Below are positions 236 through 13,247 of a stretch of 13,512 bases of DNA, one piece after another. The DNA comes from a virus (Duplodnaviria; Heunggongvirae; Uroviricota; Caudoviricetes). The translations under genes and the position numbers were made by a program. The stretch's first letter is position 1. Every line of letters starts with the position of its first letter. The notes below the pieces were generated by a model, which worked only from the letters and a program-made list of their open reading frames with translations, had not been told where the DNA came from and did not search any database. The stretch is taken from the IMG/VR virus record IMGVR_UViG_2693429524_000013, one strand, 5' to 3'.

Positions 236-694
236 TCAACCTCTCCCCACATTTGACCAGTATTTGATTGCACCGATCAAATCATCATAGTGGCGCATTG
301 CATCATTGAAGCCTTTATAGCTTGCCCATTGTGGTGAAACTTTGTTATTGCTGAATTGCCCACTAATCAGGATAGTCTCCAGAATGTCGGCGTATCGCTT
401 GCCAATTCGCTTCCTGACGGCCTCAGAGCTTCCACCCTTTACGATTGCATTAATCAGGGCTTTTGTGTGTCTCAGGCTCTCATAGAGCATTGCAGCGTGG
501 GCAGATTCCATAAATGAGCGTTTAGGCAAATCACCCCACCCCTCAGAATGAATTGCTGCCAGTGTGGCGTAATTCAGGCCGCTATAGTGTTTCCCGTCAT
601 CCCAGCCAACCGCTACACCTTCCATCTGTGAGAGCTCTTTATGCAGCTTATCCATCATGCGCTTGTCTATGGTGCACCGGACTTTCGGACTCAT
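236..694 (-). CDS. phage virion morphogenesis protein, HK97 gp10-like head-tail joining / tail-completion family (152 aa)
   Basis: Its ATG overlaps the upstream stop (ATGA at 691-694), indicating translational coupling. The segment NYATLAAIHSEGWGDLPKRSFMESA resembles the YA..hEfG...P.RPF motif of HK97 gp10-type proteins. It sits in an operon with capsid genes. Family assignment is from memory only. Confidence 0.55.
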   Translation of the reverse strand: MSPKVRCTIDKRMMDKLHKELSQMEGVAVGWDDGKHYSGLNYATLAAIHSEGWGDLPKRSFMESAHAAMLYESLRHTKALINAIVKGGSSEAVRKRIGKRYADILETILISGQFSNNKVSPQWASYKGFNDAMRHYDDLIGAIKYWSNVGRG

Positions 695-1503
695 TTGTTG
701 ATCTCCGTGATGTCATCAAGCAACATGTTGGCCTTATCAATCATCGTTTCGTGGAACTCATTCGACACAACAGACTTATCACCTGCGGCAATCTTTCCCG
801 CTGCCTCTCCCTGTGCATATTCCCCGCGATGCTTAGCCCTGGTTGATTTCGTAGCAGCATTGCCAGCGTTACTACCCTCTTTAGCACTATTAACAGCACC
901 CTTTTGCTGTGTTTTGTTCACCTTCTTACTGTTAGTGAAAACTCCGGCATTTTCGACCATCTTCACCTTGAAGGTGCGGAATTCTTCAAAGGTGCAATCA
1001 ATAGTGATGCAGTCACCGGAGGAAGAGCTACGCTTAACTTCACATTTCGTCATGATGAAGTTCTCAAGGAGTCCGGCATCTTCACTCACCAGGCTAACAA
1101 GCTGGCGCTTGTCTCTCATTTCCATAAGTGCCTGAACAGCGGCAGCAGGGCGCATAGATTCACGGGGATTATCTGGATCAGTGTTCCGGTCGATGTAGTT
1201 CTCTTTCCGGATGATATGAGGAGAAGAGGTAATAATGCCCGTAAAGCTGACAGATTTATCTTTAATGACGGCATGGTCTGACATGGTGGTGCCATCCTCG
1301 ACCGCATAGCTCGATTTCTCAACAGGGAACGAATAGCTGACATCAGAGATAGAGTCAAAGAAGATAGCCACGTTATCGGTATAGTTGAAGCCATCCATTA
1401 TATTTTTGTTTTGTGAATATCCCCCACACATAACAGTGAATGCAGGAGATCTCGACTCAGCTTGTTTTGCAGCTGTCAGAGCATCATTAGCCATATTAAA
1501 CAT
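691..1503 (-). CDS. hypothetical virion structural protein with a Lys/Ala/Gly-rich C-terminal low-complexity tail (~270 aa from ATG 1503 or 1494; the track ORF extends to a TTG at 1611)
   Basis: Long minus-strand ORF coupled to the downstream gene. The 1611 start is a TTG with no SD. GGAGG lies just upstream of ATG 1503 and ATG 1494. The central segment SFPVEKSSYAVEDGTTMSDHAVIKDKSVSFTGII looks like a beta-rich tail/baseplate-type fold, but no family is recognised with certainty. Confidence 0.6.
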   Translation of the reverse strand: MFNMANDALTAAKQAESRSPAFTVMCGGYSQNKNIMDGFNYTDNVAIFFDSISDVSYSFPVEKSSYAVEDGTTMSDHAVIKDKSVSFTGIITSSPHIIRKENYIDRNTDPDNPRESMRPAAAVQALMEMRDKRQLVSLVSEDAGLLENFIMTKCEVKRSSSSGDCITIDCTFEEFRTFKVKMVENAGVFTNSKKVNKTQQKGAVNSAKEGSNAGNAATKSTRAKHRGEYAQGEAAGKIAAGDKSVVSNEFHETMIDKANMLLDDITEINK

Positions 1504-1699
1504 GCCTCCAAATTGGTCCACTTCTTTCGCTGGCTTAGCCAGGTGACTAAGGTCACCCCTTCGGGCGTGAGTGGATTTAGCTAAAGCTAAACCTGCAAAA
1601 GATGCAGGCAAAATAGAACTTATCGTTGCCCTGCTTAAAATCTGCAGAAAATACAGGGCAGTTATTCGTTAGAATCGCTTATAGCTCTTCCCGAGAGCG

Positions 1700-1951
1700 T
1701 TATTTTGCAAAACGATTATGGGCATTCAGGGCTTTTTTGCGGTCCTGTGCCTGTTTTCGTGCAATAAAATGTTCGAAAGTCTCGGCCCAGGTGCATTTAT
1801 TATATTCACGGTATTTATGCATAGCCTGGCGGCTAACGTCATAGCAGGCGGCAAATGTGGAGATACGCAGGAATTCCGGCAGATCCTCGTCATCGATATG
1901 GATAATATCAAAAGGCACGTCGTCACGGTCGCCGTATAAAACAATTTTCAT
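1700..1951 (-). CDS. small HTH DNA-binding protein (83 aa from ATG 1951; the track start at 1960 is a GTG)
   Basis: GAGGTG SD lies 6 nt upstream of ATG 1951. The segment ISTFAACYDVSRQAMHKY reads as helix-turn-helix. Its position between the capsid gene and the next structural gene is unusual. Confidence 0.6.
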   Translation of the reverse strand: MKIVLYGDRDDVPFDIIHIDDEDLPEFLRISTFAACYDVSRQAMHKYREYNKCTWAETFEHFIARKQAQDRKKALNAHNRFAK

Positions 1952-1983
1952 AAAAGACACCTCAAAAACTTAAGACGGGGATA

Positions 1984-2036
1984 ATAAAAAAAGGGAAGAG
2001 GGAAAGACCTATCCCCGATCTCTCACCTCTTCCCTT
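1984..2036 (-). terminator. strong rho-independent terminator after the major capsid gene
   Basis: Perfect 11-bp stem AAGGGAAGAGG (1991-2001) / CCTCTTCCCTT (2026-2036). On the minus strand it is followed by a run of 7 U (plus-strand A run 1986-1992). The plus side has TGCTTTTATTT, so it may act bidirectionally. Confidence 0.8.
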
Positions 2037-2047
2037 TGCTTTTATTT

Positions 2048-2062: not shown

Positions 2063-2065
2063 ACC

Positions 2066-3112: not shown

Positions 3113-3123
3113 CTTCAACCTCC

Positions 3124-3459: not shown

Positions 3460-3584
3460 TTGATCACCTGCGATTTAAATTAACTCCCCTCAAAGAGTTC
3501 CGGTATAACCTCTCAAACCGCGACAGGCTCGGGCCGAAAAGTTATGCCGGAAATCTAAAGGGAAATTGATACAAGGAAAGGGAG

Positions 3585-3614
3585 ATAGCCCCGCACCGTC
3601 CAAGCGGGGGCTAT
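3585..3614 (-). terminator. GC-rich stem-loop in the leader of the capsid operon (possible attenuator)
   Basis: ATAGCCCCGC (3585-3594) pairs with GCGGGGGCTAT (3604-3614) with one bulge. On the minus strand it is followed by CUCCCUUUCCUUG, which is only moderately U-rich. Confidence 0.3.
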
Positions 3615-3787
3615 TCCATATGGGGAAAACCAACAACAGTTGGCTGATAGTTCACAGTATGGTTACGGTTACTAGAGAGCACTATCACGAAAGGCACTCC
3701 CCCGAATCAGTTCAGGCTGCGGTCACATCAGCGGGGAAATACCTTTCGGGATAGCTACCCACACAGAAAACCCGCAAAAGAAAACTG

Positions 3788-3796
3788 TGTGGATAA
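3788..3796. promoter_or_regulatory. consensus DnaA box (TGTGGATAA = TTATCCACA)
   Basis: Exact 9/9 match to the R-type DnaA box. It is a single copy in the non-coding leader. Confidence 0.3.
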
Positions 3797-3943
3797 CTAG
3801 CCCAATAGGAGAATTAATCGACCACTCAACGATGATCAGGGTAGTGTTATTTATAAGGCGGCACCGCTACCTGGTCGCCGTTACTTTGGAGGAAAATACG
3901 GCAAATCAAGATCTTCTCACATTGATATTGACGCCATATGTAT

Positions 3944-3972
3944 ATTATATCAGTATTTACTCACATTGTCAA
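3944..3972 (-). promoter_or_regulatory. perfect-consensus sigma70 promoter firing leftward toward the capsid operon
   Basis: The minus strand reads TTGACA (3972-3967), a 17-nt spacer, then TATAAT (3949-3944), with a TGn extended -10 (ctgaTATAAT). The -35 context is TTGACAAT, as in the three rightward promoters. Confidence 0.75.
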
Positions 3973-4070
3973 CACCCTGATTATATAAATTCTAATAATT
4001 AGCGTAGTAACGGTATTTTCAGACCTCTATCAATCCCATCAATACGTCACCCCACCCTTTAGACATATAC

Positions 4071-4101
4071 ATCTATCACTACTTTATAAAGCCTGATAGA
4101 T
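4071..4101. promoter_or_regulatory. operator-like inverted repeat ATCTATCA-N15-TGATAGAT
   Basis: 8-bp perfect arms at 4071-4078 and 4094-4101 with a central TTTATAAA. It is part of a set of five CTATCA/TGATAG hexamers between 4027 and 4222. Confidence 0.35.
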
Positions 4102-4195
4102 ATCCGTTGATCCTGATCAAGGTTTTCCGGGGATTTACCCGGTTATAGTTCGAATCAAGGAAGGGGAGCATTGATAGCACCCAAACCGAACAAAC

Positions 4196-4213
4196 AAATC
4201 AACTTCTCGCAAA
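4196..4213 (+). repeat. 18-nt motif AAATCAACTTCTCGCAAA, copy 1
   Basis: Identical to 4739-4756. It ends exactly 11 nt before ATG 4225. Confidence 0.85.
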
Positions 4214-4224
4214 AGGTGATAGTT

Positions 4225-4347
4225 ATGGGTATCAAGAACAGTGCCAGCGCATGGCAAAAGGCCAGGTTTCATCACCCACACATTGTTAAGGCAATTGAGG
4301 TGGTTGGAGTGTTAGCCCTGATGTTAGCTCTGTGTGTGGAGGTGTGA
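4225..4347 (+). CDS. 40-aa small membrane peptide (MGIKNSASAWQKARFHHPHIVKAIEVVGVLALMLALCVEV)
   Basis: Not in the ORF track because it is under 60 aa. AGGTGA SD lies 7 nt upstream. It has a hydrophobic C-terminal helix. Its stop is followed 1 nt later by another SD-led ATG (4349, 22 codons). Confidence 0.45.
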   Translation: MGIKNSASAWQKARFHHPHIVKAIEVVGVLALMLALCVEV

Positions 4348-4449
4348 GATGGGCAAAGGAGGCAAAGCATTTTTTAATAGGTCTGGCTATCCTGGATGTT
4401 CTACTAATCATGATTGAGCGGAGTTTATGAACAGCATTGAGAGGAGTTT

Positions 4450-4710
4450 ATGACGGGGGCTAAAGATATCAGGAGACTGAGGGAAGAGCTGATAGCTGAA
4501 ATTAAAGCTAAGGCAAAGCAAATGGAGATAGCCGCACAAATGGATGTAGCGGAACAGATGTACAAGATGGTTGAAGAGGGAACACCACGACAGGTTATCG
4601 CTAAAACCTTCGGTGTGGGGATCGCCACCGTGCACAGAAGGCTGAAAGCCTATGCCGACTACCACAACATTGAGAGAGGGGAGGATGGGAGATTTAAGAA
4701 GAATAAATAG
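4450..4710 (+). CDS. small coiled-coil plus C-terminal HTH DNA-binding protein (86 aa)
   Basis: GAGGAG SD is present. The segment TPRQVIAKTFGVGIATVHRRLKAY is a resolvase/sigma-region-4-style HTH. Its ATG overlaps the stop of an 8-codon uORF (4427-4453). GGAGTTTATGA is duplicated at 4420-4430 and 4443-4453. Confidence 0.75.
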   Translation: MTGAKDIRRLREELIAEIKAKAKQMEIAAQMDVAEQMYKMVEEGTPRQVIAKTFGVGIATVHRRLKAYADYHNIERGEDGRFKKNK

Positions 4711-4738
4711 TGTGAACAGTCCAATAGGTTATTAACTT

Positions 4739-4756
4739 AAATCAACTTCTCGCAAA
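4739..4756 (+). repeat. 18-nt motif AAATCAACTTCTCGCAAA, copy 2
   Basis: Identical to 4196-4213. It ends exactly 11 nt before ATG 4768. Confidence 0.85.
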
Positions 4757-4767
4757 GGGGTACCACT

Positions 4768-5289
4768 ATGTTATTCCAGAAAGACAAAGAATCAGTAAAT
4801 AAAAGGCTTTTTAAAGAACTGGTAAAAATGTTCTTTCAGTACACTGCAGCGTTTTTGATAGCCGGGCCTTGGTTAATGGCTATCTGTTTTTACCCTGCTA
4901 CCTTGTTTATTGGCAGTAGCAAGTTCGGCGATGGCCCGTTTCATGTGGATATTGGTTTTATAGATTCTCTCCTGATCCGTCCTATAAATGCTGTTCTCAA
5001 TGCTTTCTACTTCCCAACTAGTCTAGAGGGGTGGGCGGTAACCTGGGGTGTTTTAGGCTTAGCATATGTATATTGGTTGGTTGGCTTTTTGTGGGGTGCA
5101 ATCTGTGCTCTCCTCGATATTGATACAGGATCAAGCCGTAGGAGTAGTGGTAATAATAGCGGAGCGGGTGTATATGCACACGTAGGTACCAGAGGGGTAA
5201 GTATCACCGCAGGTACCCGATTCGCTGGCGGCTGGCTGAGTATAGGCAAACGCGGCGTTAGTTGGAGAAAAAGCAAAAAACTGTTCTGA
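4768..5289 (+). CDS. integral membrane protein (173 aa) with a Gly/Ser/Arg-rich C-terminal tail reminiscent of DUF4236
   Basis: Two long hydrophobic segments are present: FFQYTAAFLIAGPWLMAICFYPATLFI and WAVTWGVLGLAYVYWLVGFLWGAICALL. The tail GTRGVSITAGTRFAGGWLSIGKRGVSWRK resembles DUF4236. A clean terminator follows. Confidence 0.75.
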   Translation: MLFQKDKESVNKRLFKELVKMFFQYTAAFLIAGPWLMAICFYPATLFIGSSKFGDGPFHVDIGFIDSLLIRPINAVLNAFYFPTSLEGWAVTWGVLGLAYVYWLVGFLWGAICALLDIDTGSSRRSSGNNSGAGVYAHVGTRGVSITAGTRFAGGWLSIGKRGVSWRKSKKLF

Positions 5290-5297
5290 CCTACCAG

Positions 5298-5318
5298 GGG
5301 GCCATCACGGCCCCTTTT
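5298..5318 (+). terminator. rho-independent terminator of the accessory cassette
   Basis: GGGGCC (5298-5303), loop ATCAC, GGCCCC (5309-5314), then TTTT. Confidence 0.8.
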
Positions 5319-5342
5319 CTATTTCCAGTCGCTATAGCTCCT

Positions 5343-5414
5343 GAGTAATTCCACTCCCTGAGGTCGTGATCAATTCCACACCCTACCCCCTGATCAATTA
5401 ACCCCTATTTAATG
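5343..5414. repeat. three ~24-bp direct repeats (TGATCAATTCCAC-type)
   Basis: AATTCCAC occurs at 5347-5354 and 5372-5379. TGATCAATT occurs at 5367-5375 and 5391-5399. A related 17-mer CCCCTGATCA(A/T)TTAACC occurs at 5387-5403 and 6284-6300. Confidence 0.6.
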
Positions 5415-5446
5415 GGTATTTAATGCCTATTTATTGATTTAATCCG
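5406..5446. repeat. AT-rich 11-bp phased repeats (TATTTAATG x3-4), resembling a DNA-unwinding element
   Basis: TATTTAATG at 5406-5414 and 5417-5425, TATTTATTG at 5428-5436, ATTTAATCC at 5438-5446. The period is 11 bp. Confidence 0.55.
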
Positions 5447-5514
5447 TTTTATGCCACAACCGCCCGGTTGACAGAGTAAGAGAGAGGGTGTAACCCTTTT
5501 TCGTAATACTAATG

Positions 5515-5530
5515 AAATCAATAAGTTAGC
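5515..5530 (+). repeat. 16-nt motif AAATCAATAAGTTAGC, copy 1 (matches IHF consensus WATCAANNNNTTR)
   Basis: Identical 16-mer at 13259-13274. The core AATCAATAAGTTA fits WATCAA-N4-TTR. Confidence 0.6.
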
Positions 5531-5584
5531 TTAATAGGCCTTTTCTCTATTTTTGTCAAATTTAACATACCCTAAAAAACTGCA

Positions 5585-5618
5585 AAATCTGGCTGCAAGA
5601 TTATCTGCAGCTGGATTT
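5585..5618 (+). other. 34-nt imperfect hairpin
   Basis: AAATCTGGCTGCA pairs with TGCAGCTGGATTT. There are 13 pairs, including two G-T pairs that are wobble only if the plus strand is read as RNA. Confidence 0.4.
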
Positions 5619-6520
5619 CTTACACCTCATTTTGTGGTATCACCCTGACTAGTTTGTGCATAAATTGAACAGTTTTTAACATTTCCTCTTCACCTGGTAA
5701 CCACACAAAAAGCTAAAAACGAGGCACAGATAATCTTAGAGGCCTATTTTCTTGTTATCACTCTGGAAACGTCGTAGAAGTGATTTTGATGAAAGGCGAC
5801 CTACCCTATTACACCCCCATTTTTTGTTATCACAATTGCATCCTGTGTGGCTATATGGCTATGTGCTGAAAGCGGTCTCGGGTGTGGGTGTCAGAAATAT
5901 CCATTAGCGGTATTTGAGCTTATGGGTAACTCGTCTGAGGTGCCAGGCAGGCGCTCCCCTACCTCCCTTTTTTCTTCTAACAATTCTCAAATATCACACC
6001 ACTGCCCACCACGTTGCTATTATGTTAATTCTTAAGCTTTGCTGTATGTTGTGCACATTATTTATTCAGGTGGCTGTACGTAAATTCTGTGCCCACTGAT
6101 CATGATTTTTAAATCAGATTTTGTAGTGCGGTTTCTTAGTGCTGATAAGATCTATTATGTTAAATGCAATTTTCCCAACCCTTCAAATCAATGACTTACA
6201 TGTAAGCATGCACTAACACCACACACAGCACATTAGACGTATAGATGGCTATATCCCACATATTTGATTGTTTTGTAGTCATTCCCCTGATCATTTAACC
6301 AGTATAGTTTGTTATCTGCAGACCACAAAATCGGAATTTACATCTGATTAACATAATCTGTTAGCATGATCACCATTACCCACACAACAATAACCCCATG
6401 TAAGCCTCTTCAGGCAATTTATCGGCGTGTTGGTGTGAACAGTCTTTCATGTTCTTTATGTATCAGTTGTCCTGTGTGGTGATTTGGTGGACTGCCCCAG
6501 GGGCCATACTTATGATGCCC

Positions 6521-6559
6521 GGTCAACATAGCTGTTGATAAAATCAACGGGTGTTGACC
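6521..6559. promoter_or_regulatory. twin palindromic operator-like sites
   Basis: TCAACA-tagc-TGTTGA (6523-6538) and TCAAC-gggt-GTTGA (6544-6557), with centres 20 bp apart. Outer arms GGTCAACA and TGTTGACC also pair. Confidence 0.45.
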
Positions 6560-6632
6560 TGCATATTTCCCACACATGAGAGGAAATCAGAGCAAAGAGA
6601 GAGGAGAGAGGTTTGTTAGTCACATATGGTGA

Positions 6633-6664
6633 TTTGAGCTCATCTCAAACCTTCTACGAAGGCC
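6633..6664 (+). repeat. two-hairpin module, copy A
   Basis: TTTGAG-ctcat-CTCAAA (6633-6649) abuts CCTTC-TAC-GAAGG (6650-6662), followed by CC. The 5' flank is TCACATATG. Confidence 0.65.
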
Positions 6665-6719
6665 TTTGCTAGTCAAAATCAAGTCACATTAGAGTCAAAT
6701 CAGATGCAATCAATCCCCC

Positions 6720-7051
6720 ACCTGTTGGGATTTCCCACATGTTCAACCATACACAGGAGCTAACCTGTTGGGATTTCCTACAACCCCTTTCAGTCATACT
6801 CAGGCACCACACCCCGGTAAATATTTCCCTACTACCCCGGAGAATTTCTCCGCACTACCTGTAAAGAATTTTCACACCTGTGTGTTTATACAATCATACT
6901 CTCCTGTTTTGCAGTCATTGCACCCATGATACACAGCCCTAACCTGTAAAATATTTTTACTACCCCGCCAATAATACGGCCCATACCTGTAAAATATTTT
7001 TACTACTACCTGTCAAAATCTTTTACTACTACCTGTAAAAATATTTGACAC
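6720..7051 (+). repeat. array of nine ~21-23 bp iterons, consensus ACCTGTAAAATATTTTTAC(TAC); candidate replication origin or centromere
   Basis: Units start at 6720, 6763, 6813, 6836, 6857, 6942, 6985, 7008 and 7031. The last three abut with exact 23-bp phasing. Each unit has an internal dyad. Confidence 0.8.
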
Positions 7052-7080
7052 TAATAGATAAAGTAATAGACCACACAATA

Positions 7081-7118
7081 GATCCCCCTAACCCCCCAGG
7101 GGGGAATGGGGAGGGATC
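7081..7118. repeat. G/C palindrome GATCCC...CCCCCC-A-GGGGGG...GGGATC followed by G-tracts
   Basis: C6-A-G6 lies at 7092-7104. Outer arms are GATCCC (7081-7086) and GGGATC (7113-7118). Downstream G-tracts (G6, G4, G3, G4) fit a loose G-quadruplex pattern. Confidence 0.6.
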
Positions 7119-7167
7119 AGAGAGTGGGGAAGGTTTTCTAAGGGAAAAGCTTAACCCACAAATGAAA

Positions 7168-7196
7168 GCCTAAAGAGCATTAGCGACTCTTTAGGC
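7168..7196 (-). terminator. 10-bp perfect hairpin, terminator-like on the minus strand
   Basis: GCCTAAAGAG (7168-7177) pairs with CTCTTTAGGC (7187-7196) across a 9-nt loop. The minus strand continues UUUCAUUUG. There is no U run on the plus side. Confidence 0.45.
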
Positions 7197-7208
7197 AATC
7201 TGTGTGTG

Positions 7209-7243
7209 GGGTGACAATGTATTCCATACATGACACGTCACCC
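7209..7243. other. nested hairpin
   Basis: Outer stem GGGTGAC (7209-7215) pairs with GTCACCC (7237-7243). The inner hairpin is ATGTAT-tcc-ATACAT (7217-7231). Confidence 0.5.
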
Positions 7244-7271
7244 TGCTCACATGTGTGGTCCACTTCGTGGA

Positions 7272-7310
7272 TTTGAGTTCACTCCGTAACTCAAACCCTC
7301 TACGAGGGCC
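7272..7310 (+). repeat. two-hairpin module, copy B (compensatory changes relative to copy A)
   Basis: TTTGAGTT-cactccgt-AACTCAAA (7272-7295) abuts CCCTC-TAC-GAGGG (7296-7308), followed by CC. It is preceded by CCAC-ttc-GTGG (7260-7270) and the flank TCACATGTG. Confidence 0.65.
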
Positions 7311-7356
7311 TTGTGTGGGGAGCGTAGTGCGATAGCACGTAGCTATATAATGTGGA

Positions 7357-7390
7357 GTCCGGATAAGAGACTTCTGTTTCCAATCCGGAC
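7357..7390. other. 8-bp perfect hairpin with an 18-nt loop
   Basis: GTCCGGAT (7357-7364) pairs with ATCCGGAC (7383-7390). Confidence 0.5.
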
Positions 7391-7410
7391 CGTTTAAGCG
7401 AGTGGTTTCT

Positions 7411-7436
7411 CGCGCGCGTGCACGCACACATATATA
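7411..7436. repeat. 26-nt perfectly alternating pyrimidine/purine tract (Z-DNA-prone)
   Basis: CGCGCGCGTGCACGCACACATATATA. It contains the 10-bp palindrome GCGTGCACGC (7416-7425). Confidence 0.7.
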
Positions 7437-7461
7437 AAGGATACACTCATAAATCGAAAAT

Positions 7462-7480
7462 AAGGCCCCTAAATGGCCTT
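7462..7480 (-). terminator. hairpin, terminator-like on the minus strand
   Basis: AAGGCC-cctaaat-GGCCTT. The minus strand continues AUUUUCGAUUU. Confidence 0.4.
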
Positions 7481-7616
7481 CTGGCTGCATTAACTAGTTT
7501 GAGTAGTGTAATTGCATTACCTGATGCTCAAATCGCGTTGTAGGGCCTCTTATGATGTTTGAGTTTAACACCCTCCAAAGTTTTAACAAAAAGTGCTCTC
7601 CCTCCATTGTGGGCCA

Positions 7617-7646
7617 TTGACAATCTTATTGCATAAATGCTATAAG
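7617..7646 (+). promoter_or_regulatory. strong sigma70 promoter P1 (rightward)
   Basis: TTGACA (7617-7622), 18-nt spacer, TATAAG (7641-7646), with TGc extended -10. The -35 context is TTGACAAT. Confidence 0.6.
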
Positions 7647-7744
7647 TTATTCTGTTTTTGACACGGTAGGGGACATTAATAATGCTTACCCCTTTGCTGT
7701 GGACTTGTTTGTACCTATAGCTCGCCTAAATGATAATGATTCCC

Positions 7745-7774
7745 ATTGACAATTGGTTGTCAATATGATAAGAT
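7745..7774 (+). promoter_or_regulatory. sigma70 promoter P2 (rightward) with an overlapping 20-bp palindromic operator
   Basis: TTGACA (7746-7751), 17-nt spacer, TAAGAT (7769-7774), with TGa extended -10. The operator ATTGACAA-ttgg-TTGTCAAT spans 7745-7764. Confidence 0.6.
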
Positions 7775-7936
7775 TATAGATAGTGGGAGAAACAGATCCG
7801 GAGGTCAACGTGGAACTGAGCGACGCTATAGCGATCATCAACCTGGCTGTAATGTGGTGCGGTGTTGCCTACATAGCCGGAGTAACTGCAATCGACAACC
7901 TTGAAGAAAAAATGATAGATAAATACAAAAAGATTG

Positions 7937-7965
7937 TTGACAATCTCGCAAATAGCTGATAAAAT
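7937..7965 (+). promoter_or_regulatory. strong sigma70 promoter P3 (rightward)
   Basis: TTGACA (7937-7942), 17-nt spacer, TAAAAT (7960-7965), with TGa extended -10. The spacer contains TCTCGCAAA (7944-7952), the core of the 18-nt motif. Confidence 0.7.
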
Positions 7966-8016
7966 ATAAAGCATAGGGTAATTCTCATCATAGTGAATTT
8001 TCCTTTAATGAACTGG

Positions 8017-8044
8017 CGGGAGCTATTAGTTCCCGTTTCTTTTT
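8017..8044 (+). terminator. rho-independent terminator/attenuator between P3 and the first early gene
   Basis: CGGGA (8017-8021), 9-nt loop, TCCCG (8031-8035), then TTTCTTTTT. It lies ~50-70 nt downstream of the predicted P3 start and 44 nt upstream of ATG 8088. Confidence 0.6.
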
Positions 8045-8087
8045 AACCCTATATCGCACAGGCGGTGAGCTAACAGGAGATTGAATC

Positions 8088-8297
8088 ATGGCTAAAACCG
8101 GACCGATAAGCCAGCTGGTAAACTGGACTACTGACGAAATCGTCGAGAACGTGCTTAAAGGTAACTTTCGCAAAACTTCCGTTTATGCATTTATTCGAAA
8201 ACATAAAGGAGAATATCCACACATTGAAGCGGCAATAGAAAGATTAAACTTTATTAAACTTGAGCGCCAGCTGGAAAGATATAAACATCTGATTTAA
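8088..8297 (+). CDS. small early protein (69 aa), possible Cro/excisionase-like DNA-binding protein
   Basis: AGGAG SD lies 8 nt upstream. It is the first gene after the tandem promoters. The function call is weak. Confidence 0.7.
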   Translation: MAKTGPISQLVNWTTDEIVENVLKGNFRKTSVYAFIRKHKGEYPHIEAAIERLNFIKLERQLERYKHLI

Positions 8298-8317
8298 TAA
8301 ATAATTGTGAGGGAATT

Positions 8318-9202
8318 ATGGCAAACAATAAACTGGGGGCACATTTCACCCCCATTTTTAAACGTTTTATCAAGTATAATTTTGAAAATCCAATTGCAAA
8401 AACTACAACAGGCAAAGAGAGATTTAATTTAAATGCGACGGAATTGATAATTTACGGGGAAATGGTTGGCTTTCATTTAAACGGCAAAGAAATATTCATC
8501 TCGGAGCAGACCTTAGCAGATGATTGGGATTTTTCAAGACCAACGATTATTAAAGCTATTAAATCTCTAGTAAATGCTGGGATTATTTCTAAAGATAACC
8601 GGAAAGGCAAATCTAACATTTACAAACTGTTAATTACACCTGAGCAGTTTGATAAAATGTGCGATGAGCAGGGTATTAAAACCTTAGACAGTGTGGGAGA
8701 CAGCAAAGAGGCACCTGCTACACAGGCCCAAGATAATCAACAGGAAGCCCCAAAACAAGCCACACAGCAGCCTGAAAAGCCCGAGGCAATGCAATCCCCT
8801 TCCCAACCTAAAAAAGAACACAGAGAACGCCGTAGAGACGCTGGCAAACGTGAAATAGATGAGCACGGTTATCCGATTCTGACAAGCGATGAAATGAATG
8901 CCAGATATAAAGTAATTCAGGCCGCATTTAAAGATCAGAAGAGAATTAAATTATCTGAATTGCGTGATACATTTTACGGGCCGGAGGTGATGGATAAAAT
9001 TAAAGGCACTATTCCTGATAAAATCTGGAAAGAGGAAGATTACTGGCACCTGACAGAGCAGGCCCTTAAGGTAGCTCAACACGTGGTTAAAAGAGGCAAA
9101 TCAATTATTATTGATTCTATTAGTCATGGCTATGATGCACCGAAAGAAAGGTTGTGGAACAACTGCAAGCTTGTAAAAGGCGAATTGACAATTACAAAAT
9201 AA
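8318..9202 (+). CDS. replication initiator candidate: N-terminal winged-HTH (lambda O / replisome-organiser-like), Gln/Pro-rich linker, C-terminal domain (294 aa)
   Basis: The N-terminal segment ISEQTLADDWDFSRPTIIKAIKSLVNAGIISKDNRKGKSNIYKL is a classic wHTH of phage/plasmid initiators. A low-complexity linker APATQAQDNQQEAPKQATQQPEKPEAMQSPSQPKK follows. The three-part architecture resembles lambda O. Confidence 0.6.
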   Translation: MANNKLGAHFTPIFKRFIKYNFENPIAKTTTGKERFNLNATELIIYGEMVGFHLNGKEIFISEQTLADDWDFSRPTIIKAIKSLVNAGIISKDNRKGKSNIYKLLITPEQFDKMCDEQGIKTLDSVGDSKEAPATQAQDNQQEAPKQATQQPEKPEAMQSPSQPKKEHRERRRDAGKREIDEHGYPILTSDEMNARYKVIQAAFKDQKRIKLSELRDTFYGPEVMDKIKGTIPDKIWKEEDYWHLTEQALKVAQHVVKRGKSIIIDSISHGYDAPKERLWNNCKLVKGELTITK

Positions 9203-9240
9203 ACATTCTTATTTTTAAGTTCATCAAAGGAAAATTTAAA

Positions 9241-9387
9241 ATGTATGGCGATTTTGATTATTACCTGGAAAAGGAAAAATATTTTGAAGATGAACTATCA
9301 CAACATTTTTCATATTGGGAAGAATATTGTGGTTGGTTAGCTGAAGATCCAGCAGATGAAGAAAATGATTCTGACATCCCTTATTAA
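9241..9387 (+). CDS. 48-aa hyper-acidic, aromatic-rich early protein (track ORF 9154-9387, trimmed to ATG 9241)
   Basis: AAGGA SD lies 9 nt upstream of ATG 9241; the longer form would overlap the upstream gene by 49 nt. The sequence is MYGDFDYYLEKEKYFEDELSQHFSYWEEYCGWLAEDPADEENDSDIPY, with 16 of 48 residues Asp or Glu. Confidence 0.55.
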   Translation: MYGDFDYYLEKEKYFEDELSQHFSYWEEYCGWLAEDPADEENDSDIPY

Positions 9388-9478
9388 TACCCCCAAATAA
9401 ACCAACAAACTACTAAATAAACTAATTACTAGAACTAGATTGATTGCCCTGATCTTTTAAACGTTCGGAGAATTAATC

Positions 9479-9964
9479 ATGTTCAAATCTGATCTTTCTG
9501 ATTCCCAATTTGAAAAACTGGTAGCACTGCAGAAATACCTCCCCAGTGATGATCAACCAACACGACAGGCCAAACACTTATTAGTCGAGGGCTTTACCCC
9601 TGAATTCGTTGCGGAATATACAGGCGTTAAACTTGAGAAAGTCCAAAAACTATATAATGAGTCCTGGAATCCACGGTGTCGAGTTCCCCTCAGTGTCTAT
9701 AACGACATAGATAGAGATAAAAATGTCTTCGAAGATCGCCGCCGCAAATCTCTTTTAATGTGGAATTGTGGGATGAATATTGAAGAGATAGCAAAAGAAT
9801 TAAAAGTAACCTGCTTTCATATATGGGGCTTGTTGAGCGACCTCCTGCCACGTAAGGAGCTTAATCAACGTTTGCCTAAGCCCGGTAGTCGTGCTTATCG
9901 CGAATTTATATTCATCTACCGCCGCCATAGCAATAAAGTCCGGAAAGCAATGCAGCGCAAATAG
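9479..9964 (+). CDS. double-HTH (sigma-region-4 / LuxR-like repeats) DNA-binding protein (161 aa)
   Basis: GGAG SD is present. Two HTH-like modules are seen: LLVEGFTPEFVAEYTGVKLEKVQKLY and LLMWNCGMNIEEIAKELKVTCFHIWGLL. The C-terminus is basic. Confidence 0.7.
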   Translation: MFKSDLSDSQFEKLVALQKYLPSDDQPTRQAKHLLVEGFTPEFVAEYTGVKLEKVQKLYNESWNPRCRVPLSVYNDIDRDKNVFEDRRRKSLLMWNCGMNIEEIAKELKVTCFHIWGLLSDLLPRKELNQRLPKPGSRAYREFIFIYRRHSNKVRKAMQRK

Positions 9965-10001
9965 CTTATAGCCTTCACATATACCGCAAGTTATTGATTC
10001 T

Positions 10002-10027
10002 GCCGTCCGGTAAATATGCCGGATGGC
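10002..10027 (+). other. intergenic 9-bp hairpin
   Basis: GCCGTCCGG pairs with CCGGATGGC (one G-T pair) across an 8-nt loop. It sequesters the ATG at 10023, arguing that the real start of the next gene is 10053. Confidence 0.5.
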
Positions 10028-10052
10028 TCATATAAATTTTAAGGAATTCCAA

Positions 10053-10496
10053 ATGTCTCAAATCGCTAAATTATTATCCCAGGTTATCAAAGCTATCGAC
10101 GCTGAAGATTCAAAAGTTCGCCAGGATCTTTTAGATGGCAAGTTTACCAACACCCTGGCATTTACCCGTGACAAAGAGCACTTCTTAAAACACAGGCATC
10201 ACGCTTTTGCTGAATGCAAGTCCGCCAATGGTGATGTTTTTTATGTCGATTTGGTGGTTATGGCATGCAGATTGTGGATGATTCAAGACCTTATGCGCCA
10301 GCACGGAGATGATCCCCTCCTCAGCATGTGGGATAACGCCAAGGATGGATTCGTGATCGCGGCGCTATCCAAATCAATGATTGAGGCAGAAGGTGCCAGC
10401 CTTCAAAACATGGCAGACCTCTTCGAAATAAGCGTAGGAATGATGCAGGCCATGCTGCAGGCGGTGAAGCCTCTCAAACTGGTCAATCTTGAATGA
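10053..10496 (+). CDS. hypothetical helical protein (147 aa from ATG 10053; the track start is 10023)
   Basis: AAGGA SD lies 8 nt upstream of ATG 10053, whereas 10023 has no SD. No family is recognised. Confidence 0.7.
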   Translation: MSQIAKLLSQVIKAIDAEDSKVRQDLLDGKFTNTLAFTRDKEHFLKHRHHAFAECKSANGDVFYVDLVVMACRLWMIQDLMRQHGDDPLLSMWDNAKDGFVIAALSKSMIEAEGASLQNMADLFEISVGMMQAMLQAVKPLKLVNLE

Positions 10497-10503
10497 TTAA
10501 TAA

Positions 10504-10534
10504 GCACCCTCAAAAAATGGGGGTGCCTTTATTT
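10504..10534 (+). terminator. rho-independent terminator
   Basis: GCACCC (10504-10509) pairs with GGGTGC (10521-10526), followed by CTTTATTTATCTT. Confidence 0.65.
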
Positions 10535-10570
10535 ATCTTACTTTTCACGTTTATCTAAAAGGATATGCCT

Positions 10571-10954
10571 ATGAATATTGAAGAAATGATAGTTGAATTC
10601 GATGAGGGTGATTTCCTGGAAGATGGGGAGTTTAAATACTCCCGTTTTAAACAGGCGTTATTTAGCAGTGAGGATAAACCACACGTTAGTGATCTTAACG
10701 ATGATGATTTATGTCGCTGGGTATGCACCCGCTTATATGAAGATGGAAAATATACAGGCCAAAACTTTCCAAATCTCTATTTCAAAGCACAAACATTTGA
10801 GGAAGGGCAAAGAGTGAAAAACCTGGTCGATAAAATGCTGTCAGCCGGATATTTGCATAAAGAATTATTAAATCCTAAAGCTGAAAGCAAGCGCCATTAT
10901 ATTTTTGTGTGGACTATTGGCGATAAGTGTCCACTAAGACGCAAAGGCAAATGA
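10571..10954 (+). CDS. acidic hypothetical protein in the tail-assembly-chaperone position (127 aa from ATG 10571; the track start is 10565)
   Basis: AGGA SD lies 7 nt upstream of ATG 10571. The N-terminus is acidic (EEMIVEFDEGDFLEDGEF). It sits two genes upstream of the tape measure gene. Confidence 0.65.
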   Translation: MNIEEMIVEFDEGDFLEDGEFKYSRFKQALFSSEDKPHVSDLNDDDLCRWVCTRLYEDGKYTGQNFPNLYFKAQTFEEGQRVKNLVDKMLSAGYLHKELLNPKAESKRHYIFVWTIGDKCPLRRKGK

Positions 10955-10955
10955 T

Positions 10956-11141
10956 ATGAATACCTACGAAAAGATTTATCAAAAATTAAAAAGTGATAAC
11001 AATGCTCCCGTCATCAAGGGCGGGGCTTCTTCCTCTGGTGACCTCTCAATCGAAGAGCTTGCGGAGAAATATAATATTGATAAAGAGGCCCTGAAAAGAG
11101 CTATTTCATTATCAAAATCTTTAAGACAGGGCGAGGTGTAA
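10956..11141 (+). CDS. 61-aa protein immediately upstream of the tape measure gene (HTH-like segment LSIEELAEKYNIDKEALKRAI)
   Basis: It starts 1 nt after the upstream stop. Its stop overlaps the SD of the tape measure gene. Confidence 0.6.
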   Translation: MNTYEKIYQKLKSDNNAPVIKGGASSSGDLSIEELAEKYNIDKEALKRAISLSKSLRQGEV

Positions 11142-11144
11142 GAG

Positions 11145-13247
11145 ATGGCAATGAAGGAAGTCGCCAGACTAACAAACGTTATTTACTGGGATTCTGATAA
11201 ATCCTCCTGGCGAAAAGAAGTTAAACGGCTTGAGGATTATAAAAAATCCTGGAAGAAAGCCACCGACGATATAGCTAAAGCTGATTTTAAATCTAATCAG
11301 GCTGTGCTCAGAACACAAAGAACACGCGCTAAGGTGGAAGAGCAGATTGCCAGAGCACAGAAGAAACAACGTGCTCAGGCTGTCAGCCGTCTGACCGGGG
11401 GCAATAATCCGGAGCTCTCCTCTATGCGCAAGTTCTATCAGCAGCAAGCCAGAGAAGCCGCCAGACAACAAAAACTGTTAGATCGTAGTGTTGGAGATGT
11501 TCAGCACAGAAAAGCACGTGTAGGGGCCAACAGTGCACGAATCAGCAGCATGTTTGATGGATCCCTGGTTGCTCAGTTCCAATCCAGAATCCAGAGAGTT
11601 AATGCTGATTATGCTAAAGGGGCTATTAACCTGCAGACCTATAATCAGAAAATGGCTCGGCTCAGAGCTGAAATGAAGATGGCAACAGTAGAGGCCGGAA
11701 AATTTCAGAGCAGACTGGATAAACTGGCATCAGGTGCCAGCAAGGTGCATGACAACCTGGGCAAAATCAACTCCACACTAGGCAAGATAGCCATTGGCCT
11801 TACTGCCGCTGGCTGGGGTGTTCAGCGTGCTGTTAGTGGTGCTATGGGTAGCCTTGCAGATCGCAACAGTGCCTACTTCGGTTTGATGGCACAGAACAAG
11901 GATGATAAAGCCAAGACTGACCAGCAGATGGCCTACGTCAAAAGAATCTCTTATGACTATGGGATGGATCAGCGTGAGACCGAAGGCGGCTTTATGCGCT
12001 TTGCTGCAGCCACACCAAGCATAAAAGAGAAAGATAAGCAGGATCTCTTTGAGGCTATGGCGATTAAAGGCCGATCAGTGGGTGCTACTGCGGACCAACA
12101 GAACAGGGCTATCGTTGCACTAGGACAGATATATAGCAAGGGCGGTCGAGTGTATGCGGAAGAGCTTAAGGGCCAGCTGTCAGAAGCCCTGGCAGGTTCT
12201 CAGGTAGATTTCACTAAGGCCGCTATCGATGCCGGAATCATCAAGAAAGAGGAAGAATTTAATAAAGCCCTTGAAGATGGCAAGATCACCATGGACAAGC
12301 TTCTTCCTTCCCTAGTGAAAATCTGGGGTGCTGCAAAAGAAACTAAAGCTTTTGCTGAATCCATGAAACAGCCAGAAGTAGCAATGCAGCGCATGAAAAA
12401 CAGCTTTAACGAGCTGGCGATTCAGTTTATGGGTGTTGTGGATCCTGCCGATGGCGTTGTTAGCTTATCTGAATCTCTGATCTCCATCTTCGAAGACCTC
12501 ACCACTGATATGGACGGCAGCGGGAGCGCGGCAAAACAGTTTGGTGAAGCAGTCGGTGCTGCCATGCGGGAGATCATGTATTGGGTAGGCTTCGCTAAGG
12601 GCTATATCGAGGTCAAGGCTAAAGAGTTCGGCATGACCGGATCAGAGGTTGGCGAGCTTATCGGGAAACTAGTAGTCGGCTTAGCAGGTCTGAAAGTTAT
12701 TACCACACTGCTTTCCCCTCTAACCGGATTTGTTTCACTTGTCACTCAGCTGATAGCCTTGTTAGGCAAAATCCCTGGTATGAGCAAGCTTATGGCATCT
12801 GCCTCAGGTGGAACGGCAACAGGAGCAGCGGTCATCAGTGCAGGATCTAACGCTGAAAGAAGTTTCATTGATGGCAAGACGCAGGAAATGAGTAAGGAGA
12901 ACTCAAAACAGGGCGCTTTGTTTGAGCTGGGGAGATTTGTCAGCAATGCTGGCGCACTGTTCACACCTGGCGGTGATACTGGTCCTTTGTTCGATCAGGT
13001 CAAAGGCTGGTTTAATAAAGGGCCAACATTGACAGTAGACACTGGCATCAGACCAACACCAACAGGCGGCATAGCTATCCAGAATGGTGGATATCAACCA
13101 GTCCAAGTAAATGTAGCCCCACAAGGTGAGATTTCCGGCAAATGGGAGATAACCATCGATGAGGGGGGAATTGCCAGGGTGATCCAGAAGGAAGTCAGCG
13201 ATCAGTTGGATTGGAAAGCCACACAGGAATCTAACCAGCTTTTCTAA
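11145..13247 (+). CDS. tail tape measure protein (700 aa)
   Basis: GAGGTG SD is present. The N-terminus is coiled-coil-like. The segment ALGQIYSKGGRVYAEELKGQLSEALAGSQVDF matches the conserved tape-measure domain core. Hydrophobic segments are present (LVVGLAGLKVITTLLSPLTGFVSLVTQLIALLGKIPG), and the C-terminus is Gly-rich. Confidence 0.85.
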   Translation: MAMKEVARLTNVIYWDSDKSSWRKEVKRLEDYKKSWKKATDDIAKADFKSNQAVLRTQRTRAKVEEQIARAQKKQRAQAVSRLTGGNNPELSSMRKFYQQQAREAARQQKLLDRSVGDVQHRKARVGANSARISSMFDGSLVAQFQSRIQRVNADYAKGAINLQTYNQKMARLRAEMKMATVEAGKFQSRLDKLASGASKVHDNLGKINSTLGKIAIGLTAAGWGVQRAVSGAMGSLADRNSAYFGLMAQNKDDKAKTDQQMAYVKRISYDYGMDQRETEGGFMRFAAATPSIKEKDKQDLFEAMAIKGRSVGATADQQNRAIVALGQIYSKGGRVYAEELKGQLSEALAGSQVDFTKAAIDAGIIKKEEEFNKALEDGKITMDKLLPSLVKIWGAAKETKAFAESMKQPEVAMQRMKNSFNELAIQFMGVVDPADGVVSLSESLISIFEDLTTDMDGSGSAAKQFGEAVGAAMREIMYWVGFAKGYIEVKAKEFGMTGSEVGELIGKLVVGLAGLKVITTLLSPLTGFVSLVTQLIALLGKIPGMSKLMASASGGTATGAAVISAGSNAERSFIDGKTQEMSKENSKQGALFELGRFVSNAGALFTPGGDTGPLFDQVKGWFNKGPTLTVDTGIRPTPTGGIAIQNGGYQPVQVNVAPQGEISGKWEITIDEGGIARVIQKEVSDQLDWKATQESNQLF

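Follow-up and report, generated by a model that had tools for sequence, protein, structure and literature searches.

A 13.5-kb Escherichia coli plasmid with its own capsid-shell and inner-tail genes as a candidate satellite of rV5-like myoviruses

Why would a small replicon carry a capsid gene on one arm and a tape measure gene on a divergent arm, each apart from its usual neighbors? The question is raised by IMG/VR virus record IMGVR_UViG_2693429524_000013, a stretch of 13,512 nucleotides (the window, by which we mean the whole stretch) whose scattered virion genes led an earlier sequence-only reading to compare it with phage-plasmids and with capsid-encoding satellites or mosaic elements. 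The window is an entire circular plasmid of E. coli, 13.5 kb in size, with an iteron/Rep replication module (Table 1). Its gene content suggests that the plasmid depends on a helper: with its own capsid-shell and inner-tail genes and nothing else of a virion, a satellite that needs a helper is the most likely explanation. We consider it likely that the plasmid is a helper-dependent satellite-plasmid of some kind, and on balance we favor the particular mechanism developed below, in which the plasmid is maintained vertically and mobilized by a helper. The protein homologies make a virulent rV5-like (Vequintavirinae-type) myovirus the most probable helper.

The sequence-only reading had named three junctions (3460-4200, 5300-8100, and 13250-13512) at which a misassembly or chimera might have created the layout, and comparison with related replicons refutes this. 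Megablast retrieved five matching plasmid records from PLSDB (some of them the same plasmids as in the complete genomes) and seven matching plasmids from 5,426 complete E. coli genomes, with no chromosomal match. The single-copy relatives are circular molecules of 13.2-13.7 kb that are ~93% identical to the window and align from base 1 to base 13512, covering 80-94% of the bases. Their annotations give an identical order of 16 genes, and the last and first bases of the window abut in them. Since the window is the whole circular replicon, the two gene arms converge across its ends. A scan of JGI/ENA metagenomes added two full-length family members, contigs of 13,870 and 13,895 bp, one of which has a circularizing terminal overlap of 55 bp, and circular family records overall span 13.2-13.9 kb. 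All three suspect junctions are aligned in every copy, the sole exception being an allelic iteron/Rep replacement (6600-7650), and the stretches 3460-4050 and 13250-13512 plus 1-235 rank among the best-conserved DNA of the element. With independent circular assemblies from several continents and hosts sharing both order and junctions, and with the 13.87- and 13.90-kb metagenome contigs, a misjoin of phage and plasmid fragments can be set aside as virtually impossible. No evidence in favor of a misjoin was found, and the only oddity is a 39.6-kb concatemer record with errors in one copy. That record (NZ_CP043822.1, 39,610 bp) holds three tandem copies of the element, one of them frameshifted, and is most likely a long-read concatemer artifact. 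We considered it as evidence of a headful multimer and found it uninformative, as the copies encode the same proteins, one is frameshifted, and the whole looks like a concatemer.

The plasmid is rare per genome yet recurrent, as indicated by its clusters at 90% identity, which hold 441 member sequences for the capsid protein and 438 for the Dit-like protein described below. Family plasmids come from Chile, Japan, South Africa, and the USA, and from human, chicken, bovine, and pig hosts; a scan of the GTDB representative genomes found no relatives. Autonomous replication is supported by a Rep initiator with co-varying iterons and by the circular plasmid in seven complete genomes, while parA was not recognized among the open reading frames (ORFs) of the window in Pfam, PHROGs, and NCBIfam, the profile collections used for family assignments here. 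The sequence-only reading had allowed that this might be a known family in which the gene order is standard. The order is indeed standard, and is conserved to ~30-40% protein identity, but full-text searches of the literature turned up no account of such a family of E. coli plasmids.

The divergent arms are likewise real: the listing of ORFs and the profile searches resolve two arms, and the annotations of independent plasmids keep their order. The minus-strand arm begins, as had been described, with a promoter and a leader of ~480 nt, and it encodes a 111-residue protein (earlier labeled a decoration protein, a label that follows from its position), the major capsid protein (MCP), a small conserved protein, a Dit-like tail tube initiator, and a tail-completion/Neck1-like protein. 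The small gene between the capsid and tail genes had been read as encoding a helix-turn-helix (HTH) protein, which the profile collections do not support. On the other arm, the tape measure protein (TMP) gene was confirmed; it follows replication and regulatory genes, and no tube gene was recognized. The iteron-rich region with its initiator and the convergent terminator beyond the TMP gene were borne out as well. No distal tail or baseplate gene comes after the TMP gene, as the sequence-only reading had stated, but a baseplate-proximal tube initiator is present on the capsid arm.

To which phages do the virion proteins relate? The colinear gene order of siphoviruses had served as the yardstick, and it was the wrong one, as the nearest homologues lie in rV5-like phages, which are contractile-tailed myoviruses. 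By sequence comparison, four of the five virion proteins are diverged homologues (24-51% amino acid identity) of rV5-like (Vequintavirinae) structural proteins. In tblastn searches of 50,697 phage records and a local search against the Vequintavirus MaxTheCat, the Dit-like protein shared 50-52% identity with the 'tail tube initiator' of E. coli phages in the rV5-like group (51% with MaxTheCat bas57_0019); among solved structures it matched the phiTE tube initiator (9cuy_K, E=1.6e-34) and also Phi92_gp135. The 152-residue protein was 45-49% identical to a Vequintavirinae neck-module protein (45% to MaxTheCat bas57_0011). Its phiTE homologue, phiTE_219, is encoded between the adaptor (phiTE_218) and head-completion (phiTE_220) genes and is absent from all deposited phiTE virion chains; the name 'tail completion/Neck1' is a PHROG label. 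The TMP was ~26% identical to rV5-like TMPs, and its alignment with the 778-residue TMP of MaxTheCat (26%) took in only plasmid residues 4-495, leaving the C-terminal ~200 residues unmatched. The capsid protein had no match at the database-wide threshold in the tblastn search of the phage records; with the MaxTheCat MCP it aligned over its full length at 24% identity (E=1.5e-10 in a small, single-phage database), and its PDB matches were weak (phiTE MCP 9cul_G; 9zbi_A). The plasmid MCP has no N-terminal delta domain, its relatives carry PF03864, and an exhaustive HMMER search found only 29 capsid-related clusters among 1.84 billion representative proteins.

In phiTE, a myovirus of the Vequintavirinae, the T=13 head consists of MCP and trimeric DEC, and the TMP spans the length of the tail and is three-fold at its C-terminus (PMC11972413). 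A decoration gene stands immediately before the capsid gene in both MaxTheCat and phiTE, which is the order on the plasmid. The 111-residue protein was tried as a homologue of the rV5/phiTE DEC protein; the profile-profile probability of 0.15 was not significant, and the assignment was not made. With the homologues in the Vequintavirinae, the relevant comparison is with a contractile-tailed virulent phage that has a genome of ~135-140 kb. The Vequintavirinae (rV5, MaxTheCat, phiTE, and phi92) are the source lineage of the nearest MCP, tube initiator, tail-completion, and TMP homologues. Unlike the plasmid, they are virulent phages with genomes of 130-150 kb, T=13 capsids, and a full colinear structural module, and they have no DNA similarity with it; megablast of the whole window against the 50,697 phage records gave no DNA match.

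No gene for a portal, terminase, protease, scaffold, tube, sheath, baseplate wedge, fiber, or lysis function was recognized among the window ORFs in the profile collections, and the ORFs without assignment all encode 173 residues or fewer. The sequence-only reading had seen no portal, protease, or scaffold gene before the capsid gene, and none is recognized in the entire replicon. The proposed resemblance to P1-style phage-plasmids is not supported, given a 13.5-kb element with five recognizable virion genes and no portal, terminase, sheath, baseplate, or lysis gene; phage-plasmids such as P1, SSU5, and N15 carry a complete phage genome, whereas here most functions are missing. Among the alternatives that had been offered, the evidence favors a capsid-encoding satellite.

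An incomplete set of virion genes could also result from decay. The plasmid might be a cryptic remnant, a phage-plasmid or prophage decayed by deletion that does no more than replicate and whose structural genes have no current role, and gene-free stretches that make up ~3.5 of the 13.5 kb would suit such an origin. The selection acting on the genes makes this very unlikely. Measured against six family plasmids, dN/dS was 0.05-0.09 for the 111-residue gene, 0.04-0.11 for the MCP gene, 0.01-0.11 for the tube initiator gene, 0.00-0.01 for the 152-residue gene (dS up to 0.24), and 0.10-0.19 for the TMP gene; the amino acid sequence of the 152-residue protein is unchanged in five of the six plasmids and has a single change in the other. 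All five virion genes are under purifying selection, with dN/dS of 0-0.19 at dS up to 0.9, and they are intact in nearly every copy, the only stop codon being in the capsid gene of one plasmid (L005). In addition, the architecture is found again in lineages whose MCPs are only 29-40% identical, the 50,697 phage records contain no parent phage that has close homologues, and the gene-free stretches are conserved like genes, with ~1.6 kb of such DNA (5400-6450 and 3460-4050) being 88-99% conserved, as coding regions are.

The diverged relatives also speak to what the virion genes are for. A module of decoration-position gene, MCP gene, small gene, Dit-like gene, and (in some) tail-completion gene, convergent with a TMP gene, is kept in relatives at 29-81% MCP identity. 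The three nearest capsid relatives (42, 31, and 30% identity) are on short contigs with related layouts. In L008 the order is a 112-residue protein, MCP, a 71-residue protein, a Dit-like protein, and a 152-residue protein; in L009 it is a 107-residue protein, MCP, a 53-residue protein, and a Dit-like protein, followed by a long convergent gene; and L010, at 2.8 kb the shortest contig, has a small gene, an MCP gene, and a second small gene only. All of the MCP relatives with readable context (L008, L009, L016, and L019) are small elements or short contigs. Each of the elements L016 (13.3 kb), L017 (14.9 kb), and L019 (15.2 kb) has a Dit-like gene and a convergent gene for a TMP of 713-725 residues; the first three genes of the module lie upstream of the Dit-like gene in L016 and L019, and their equivalent in L017 falls outside the examined locus. 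Relatives of the Dit-like protein are far more numerous than those of the capsid protein, and a search for them that covered 5.8 billion proteins revealed that, for clusters at 41-66% identity, the longest contigs pile up at 13.3-15.2 kb, with a second class at 18.6-21 kb. Contigs of more than 30 kb (34-138 kb) belong to the rV5-like clade, except for one of 60 kb (P0098) in a small-element clade. A size that stays at ~13-15 kb despite protein divergence to 30-60% identity is the expected product of a limit on capsid capacity. Heads of T=4 carry genomes of 11.6 kb (P4) and ~15 kb (SaPI1).

How might such a satellite work? In the mechanism that we favor, infection by the helper would trigger read-through or derepression of the two structural gene groups. 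This is suggested by the capsid group lying behind a promoter and a long leader, and by the genes in chaperone position and the TMP gene lying behind a strong terminator, although a regulatory model that draws on the leader, the terminator at 10504-10526, and the TTGACAAT-type sites described below is speculative. The plasmid MCP and the 111-residue protein would form a small shell with a capacity of ~13-15 kb, in contrast to the T=13, ~135-140-kb head of the helper. The shell would be assembled on the portal, scaffold, and protease of the helper and filled by the helper terminase. In the tail, the plasmid TMP, tube initiator, and tail-completion protein would take the place of their helper counterparts, with the initiator seating the C-terminus of the TMP in the baseplate. 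The tube, sheath, baseplate, and fibers would come from the helper, giving a chimeric tail that is ~10 nm shorter (700 versus 778 residues). Tape measures correspond to ~0.15 nm of tail per residue, at which the 78 residues by which the plasmid TMP is shorter than that of MaxTheCat amount to ~10-12 nm. The C-terminal ~200 residues of the TMP, which have no phage counterpart, fit with a plasmid that brings its own initiator. The gene sets would then be coherent, as the MCP and its partner set the shell and the head size, and no virion parts are linked more tightly to the tape measure than the TMP, initiator, and tail-completion protein.

Several results weigh against this mechanism. A small terminase subunit, a protease, and a scaffold were not recognized in the window; the IMG/VR viral contigs yielded no hit, whether scanned with a protein pattern or with a 30-nt pattern of conserved DNA; and no phage-shared DNA that could serve as a pac or cos site emerged from megablast of the whole window or from blastn of 3460-8100 and of the convergent spacer. 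In positions 1-45000 of MaxTheCat, the motif TGKTAMAATA (TGGTA(A/C)AATA) occurs seven times against 0.6 expected, with six of the seven copies in intergenic spacers of the rV5-like structural module, and it is likely an extended -10 late promoter of rV5-like phages; the window has no copy of it. The labels 'decoration' and 'chaperone' rest on gene position only. AlphaFold2 models of the MCP (made without an alignment; pLDDT 33) and of the 152-residue protein (made with five sequences; pLDDT 49) were too poor for a fold search. Finally, identities of 24-51% to known rV5-like phages may be low for co-assembly, in view of which the true helper may be an unsampled relative.

Alternatively, the satellite-plasmid may have a helper of another kind, an unsampled temperate phage or phage-plasmid that has closer structural proteins. 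This would account for best identities of only 24-51% to sequenced phages, for an MCP family that is almost empty outside these elements, and for the absence of the rV5 promoter-like motif from the window. It would also suit the AntA-type antirepressor genes of L019 and of a second plasmid type (L012, described below), which are typical of elements that interact with temperate phages. We regard such a helper as unlikely, though, as all four detectable homologies point to one phage group, and none of the Dit-like homologues closer than ~51% in the search of 5.8 billion proteins is on a contig of more than 15 kb. The finding of both an rV5-like genome and a related tail-gene plasmid in one farm sample also argues against it.

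Another possibility is that the virion genes serve defense, with the plasmid acting as a 'decoy' whose diverged virion proteins poison the assembly of rV5-like phages while the plasmid itself goes unpackaged. Assembly interference by mobile elements is reported for Tai and Tab, and Rta of PLE11 is a further precedent (PMC12987554). Strong purifying selection suits any function at the protein level, the searches gave no pac site, TerS, or virome match, and the variable cargo slot of the plasmid resembles the defense hotspots of other satellites. A single decoy would suffice for this purpose, however, yet a coherent set of five genes, covering shell geometry with the capsid partner and the tail core, is conserved to ~30-40% identity. 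Moreover, the tight 13-15-kb class over deep divergence is predicted by a headful or capsid-capacity limit and not by a defense plasmid, and PADLOC gave no hit on the unassigned ORFs of the window. We therefore think it quite unlikely that the plasmid is a decoy that is not itself packaged. Interference and satellite transfer are compatible with each other.

If the plasmid is a satellite-plasmid, as we favor, is it a member of a known family? On sequence grounds it belongs to none of the PLE, PISP, cf-PISP, cf-PICI, and P4 families. By analogy it may be described as PLE-like in its tail genes, cf-PICI- or PISP-like in its shell, and PISP-like, or like P4 in the plasmid state, in its lifestyle. 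In the PLE satellites, whose helper is the virulent myovirus ICP1, the satellite-encoded TMP, chaperone, and baseplate hub share 20, 20, and 41% identity with the ICP1 proteins; experiments showed that they replace these and give chimeric tails 10 nm shorter (PMC12987554). Like a PLE, the plasmid would be a satellite of a virulent contractile-tailed phage (here a presumptive helper), and it has its own TMP and baseplate-hub-type protein, with a shared identity pattern (TMP ~20-26%, hub ~41-51%). Unlike the plasmid, PLE is an integrated chromosomal island of ~18 kb with an integrase, it has no capsid gene, as the ICP1 coat is reportedly shrunk by the TcaP scaffold (PMC10002752), and it has no detectable sequence relationship with the plasmid. 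The plasmid in turn encodes an MCP with its partner and a tail-completion protein, and no chaperone is recognizable in it. As it also has no integrase (only an 86-residue HTH_7 protein), its tail module may be called PLE-like, but the plasmid is not a PLE.

The Vibrio elements PISP (11.1 kb, with a PF03864 capsid, protease, and TerS) and cf-PISP (15.8 kb) have been proposed in silico to be maintained as plasmids and to spread as satellites, and they are reported only in Vibrio (PMC13230959). As with the plasmid, they are small, circular, and extrachromosomal, have functions for plasmid replication, encode a capsid protein of their own, and lack the tail genes of a full virion; the capsid of PISP is of the PF03864 gpE type, as in the plasmid's relatives. 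PISP differs from the plasmid in lacking tail genes altogether and in having a protease, a small terminase, and a MerR regulator, and cf-PISP in having a full head module (portal, protease, adaptor, HNH, and terminases). The plasmid, in contrast, has three tail-core genes, no recognized portal, protease, or terminase, and no parA that we found. Some of the cf-PICIs of Enterobacteria carry putative tmp genes, as the legend of Extended Data Fig. 10 of PMC12987554 mentions. These elements resemble the plasmid in making their own small capsids and taking other virion parts from the helper; they differ in being integrated, in encoding an integrase, portal, protease, connectors, HNH, and terminase, none of which was detected in the plasmid, and in stealing tails only. 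The P2 satellite P4, with a genome of 11.6 kb, is an E. coli satellite of similar size that is able to persist as a plasmid and uses a small capsid. Unlike the plasmid, P4 acts through the external scaffold Sid and through Psu on P2 gpN and has P2-type cos sites; it has no homologues of the capsid and tail proteins, and no P4-family domain was found in scans of the window ORFs against the profile collections. The EPIPs of Mycolicibacterium are small satellites that encode an MCP and a TMP and have smaller capsids and an altered tail length relative to their helper (PMC12822802). They differ in having a siphovirus prophage as helper and in carrying a serine integrase, TerS, adaptor, and stopper, and they were isolated as free particles (PMC12822802); they are unrelated in sequence to the plasmid. 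According to two papers, satellite TMP genes were unreported before PLE11 and the EPIPs (PMC12822802, PMC12987554).

If the favored mechanism holds, it would extend satellite-plasmids, so far proposed only in Vibrio and in silico, to E. coli, for which no candidate satellite of large virulent myoviruses would have preceded it. Chimeric-tail piracy, shown experimentally only for PLE and ICP1, could be tested for its generality in an unrelated element with a satellite-made capsid, and two piracy strategies hitherto seen separately (capsids in cf-PICI/PISP and tails in PLE) would be combined. We put forward, tentatively, the possibility that these plasmids are the first members of a large, diverged superfamily of enterobacterial satellite-plasmids that parasitize rV5-like myoviruses and join self-made capsids to chimeric tails, comprising a ~13-15-kb class with its own capsid genes and a ~19-21-kb class without them. 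The system is tractable, with small elements, sequenced host strains, and rV5-like phages in public collections (e.g., BASEL). It raises the question of how capsid size is controlled when a 24%-identical MCP uses the portal, scaffold, and protease of the helper to make a head that holds a genome one tenth the size, and the question of which partners a TMP must bring along for tail assembly. Therapy and biocontrol are prospective uses of rV5-like phages, which a resident satellite could blunt, and such a satellite could also carry plasmid cargo across strains; it would then be a hidden determinant of infection outcome for a phage group that is common in E. coli cocktails.

A second type of small E. 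coli plasmid, of ~19-21 kb, is represented by CP057043.1 (pRHB39-C22_4, 20,690 bp; L012). Its genes at 7878-11493 encode a Dit-like protein (42% identity), a 746-residue TMP-like protein, and a tail-completion-like protein (33%); it has no detectable capsid gene, and its other products include an AntA antirepressor, an HNH endonuclease, and a tyrosine recombinase. In the Dit-like homologue search, this size class has many clusters. A complete rV5-like genome deposited as a circular E. coli 'plasmid' (CP057073.1, pRHB39-C03_2, 137,565 bp; L014) was obtained, from a different colony, in the pooled cattle-faeces sample series (RHB39) that also gave L012, and the co-occurrence of a candidate helper and a candidate satellite in this series is circumstantial.

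Table 1. Coordinates of genes and noncoding features in the 13,512-nt window.
Feature	Position	Strand	Evidence or remark
Tail-completion/Neck1-like protein, 152 residues	694->236	-	phrog_222 E=7.9e-29
Dit-like tail tube initiator/baseplate hub protein	1611/1494->691	-	PF21821 E=3.3e-25; phrog_5197 E=1.5e-107
Conserved 86-residue protein between capsid and tail genes	1960->1700	-	no family match
Major capsid protein, 350 residues, HK97-fold/gpE type	3118->2066	-	phrog_29 E=8.6e-21
111-residue protein, gene directly upstream of MCP gene	3459->3124	-	decoration protein by position only
Capsid-operon leader, ~480 nt, 94-99% conserved in family	3460..3972 (with promoter)	-	
Sigma70 promoter	3972->3944	-	perfect consensus TTGACA-17-TATAAT, upstream TG
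Small ORF, 40 residues from ATG 4226, hydrophobic C-terminus	4171..4347	+	preceded by AACTTCTCGC 5'-UTR motif
86-residue HTH_7 (resolvase-type HTH) DNA-binding protein	4450..4710	+	PF02796 E=3.5e-6
Variable cargo slot, here a 173-residue predicted membrane protein	4768..5289	+	
Gene-free region, ~2.5 kb	5300..7780	.	conserved block 5400-6450 and iteron array 6720-7050
Iterons, direct repeats with ACCTGT core	6720-7050		
Promoter/operator region with three TTGACAAT-type sites	7617..7965	+	promoters 7746-7774 and 7937-7965
Small ORFs between gene-free stretch and Rep		+	
Rep initiator, lambda O-like/DnaD_N winged-helix	8318..9202	+	phrog_270 E=1.3e-10
Two conserved genes, 161 and 157 residues	9479..10496	+	no family match, PADLOC included
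Strong intrinsic terminator, 9-bp stem, 6 GC pairs, T-run	10504..10526	+	directly upstream of TMP gene group
Genes of 129 and 61 residues in tail-assembly chaperone position, before TMP	10565..11141	+	position only
Tape measure protein, 700 residues	11145..13247	+	phrog_5255 E=6e-154; PF20155 E=1.5e-14
Convergent intergenic spacer, ~500 bp on circle	13248..13512 and 1..235	.	between TMP and tail-completion genes
Hairpin and U-run closing plus arm	13305-13333		bidirectional terminator hairpin
Minus-strand terminator	169-144	-	

Within the tape measure group, TMP length varies from 643 to 718 residues among close family members. Residues ~200-400 of the TMP (11745-12345) have a dS of 0.4-1.1 versus 0.1-0.2 elsewhere in the gene. 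Positive selection on this variable segment is ruled out, as dS climbs along with dN (omega ~0.2). The joint rise of dS and dN points to recombinational replacement, and the segment is, from its substitution pattern, a recombination mosaic. The 129- and 61-residue proteins encoded before the TMP have no similarity to rV5 chaperones; the 61-residue protein has a weak YlxM-type HTH match. The 157-residue protein encoded farther upstream was tried as an rV5/phiTE tail chaperone, and at a profile-profile probability of 0.1 this assignment was not made either.

No other DNA of the element is as well conserved as the convergent spacer that the two arms share across the ends of the window. Its identity is 97-100% within the family and 89-94% to L016, where protein identity is only 66-81%, and it is still alignable at ~75% to L017, although the TMP of L017 is 39% identical. 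A hairpin in the spacer, CCTGCTAACA...TGTTAGCAGG (13363-13412), has a compensatory change in L017. Rfam gave nothing above threshold in the window or over the circular junction, and blastn of the spacer against phages gave nothing below E=0.6. The spacer is a candidate pac or cos site, origin, or RNA gene. The motif AACYTCTCGC occurs three times in the window against 0.03 expected (4201-4210, 4744-4753, and 13378-13387). Two copies lie 15-25 nt upstream of ATG 4226 (the 40-residue ORF) and ATG 4768 (the cargo gene), and the third, AACCTCTCGC, is within the 13248..13512 half of the spacer. Both copies in the 5'-untranslated regions (UTRs) survive replacement of the cargo gene, and all six close family plasmids and L016 keep them. 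A minus-strand promoter-like site (13424->13395) and a terminator hairpin with U-run (13334-13296) would yield an RNA of ~100 nt (~13388 to ~13292) whose predicted 5' end (GCGAGAGGUUGAUUU) is complementary to both 5'-UTR motifs; the folding of this RNA reaches a z of -2.0 only. We regard it as a candidate trans-acting antisense small RNA.

On the capsid arm, the leader contains a GC hairpin at 3583-3612. The sole match in blastn of 3460-8100 against phages is 35 bp long (32/35, E=9e-3) and pairs 3904-3938 of the window with the gene after the capsid gene in ~20 rV5-like records (e.g., CarlMeissner 7561-7595). Being marginal and inside a phage coding sequence, it is probably at chance level. 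The 111-residue protein is 65% identical in L016 and 46% in L008. The 86-residue protein encoded between the capsid and tail genes has no family match in the profile collections; its gene has a dN/dS of ~0-0.2, and a gene of 53-81 residues occupies the same position in L008, L009, L016, and L019. The Dit-like protein has 267 residues if translation starts from the ATG at 1494 and 306 residues from the TTG at 1611.

At the start of the plus arm, the 40-residue ORF product is 59% identical to its L016 orthologue, and the HTH_7 protein is, from its domain, a probable regulator; L019 has a full resolvase gene at this position, divergent from its decoration-position and MCP genes. The cargo gene that follows is swapped for unrelated genes in L004, L005, L006, and L016, with the upstream UTR motif and the flanks kept. 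The 173-residue protein in the window has no match in Pfam, PHROGs, NCBIfam, or PADLOC, and the slot is reminiscent of accessory or defense hotspots in other satellites.

The replication module fits the pattern of an iteron-controlled theta plasmid, as the sequence places a Rep gene near direct repeats that vary together with it. Rep also matches many other O-like PHROGs, PF13730, and PF21984, and its alleles are 39-82% identical across the family. Divergence in the family peaks in the iteron zone (6600-7050) and Rep (8250-9200), which change in concert while their flanks stay above 90%; this is the pattern expected if modules were exchanged to switch incompatibility or specificity. Upstream of Rep, the three TTGACAAT-type sites, which include the palindrome TTGACAATTGGTTGTCAA (7746-7763), coincide in part with the -35 boxes of promoters that face the replication-side genes and look like an operator array for one of the small HTH proteins. 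Between Rep and the TMP gene are five small ORFs without assignment (77-161 residues; the first is annotated with 48 residues in relatives). The two conserved genes among the features of this stretch, for 161 and 157 residues, have dN/dS of 0.03-0.31, and the 161-residue protein is 46% identical in L017.

The gene-free region at 5300-7780 has no ORF of more than 99 residues; the ORFs tested had no family match, and none is annotated in the relatives. L016, L017, and L019 each have such a stretch as well, of 2.2-3.3 kb. The block at 5400-6450 is 88-99% conserved in the family, an 11-nt tandem repeat (CCTATTTAATG) lies within it at 5404-5433, and islands at 5398-5448, 5697-5737, and 5971-5996 are still conserved in L016.

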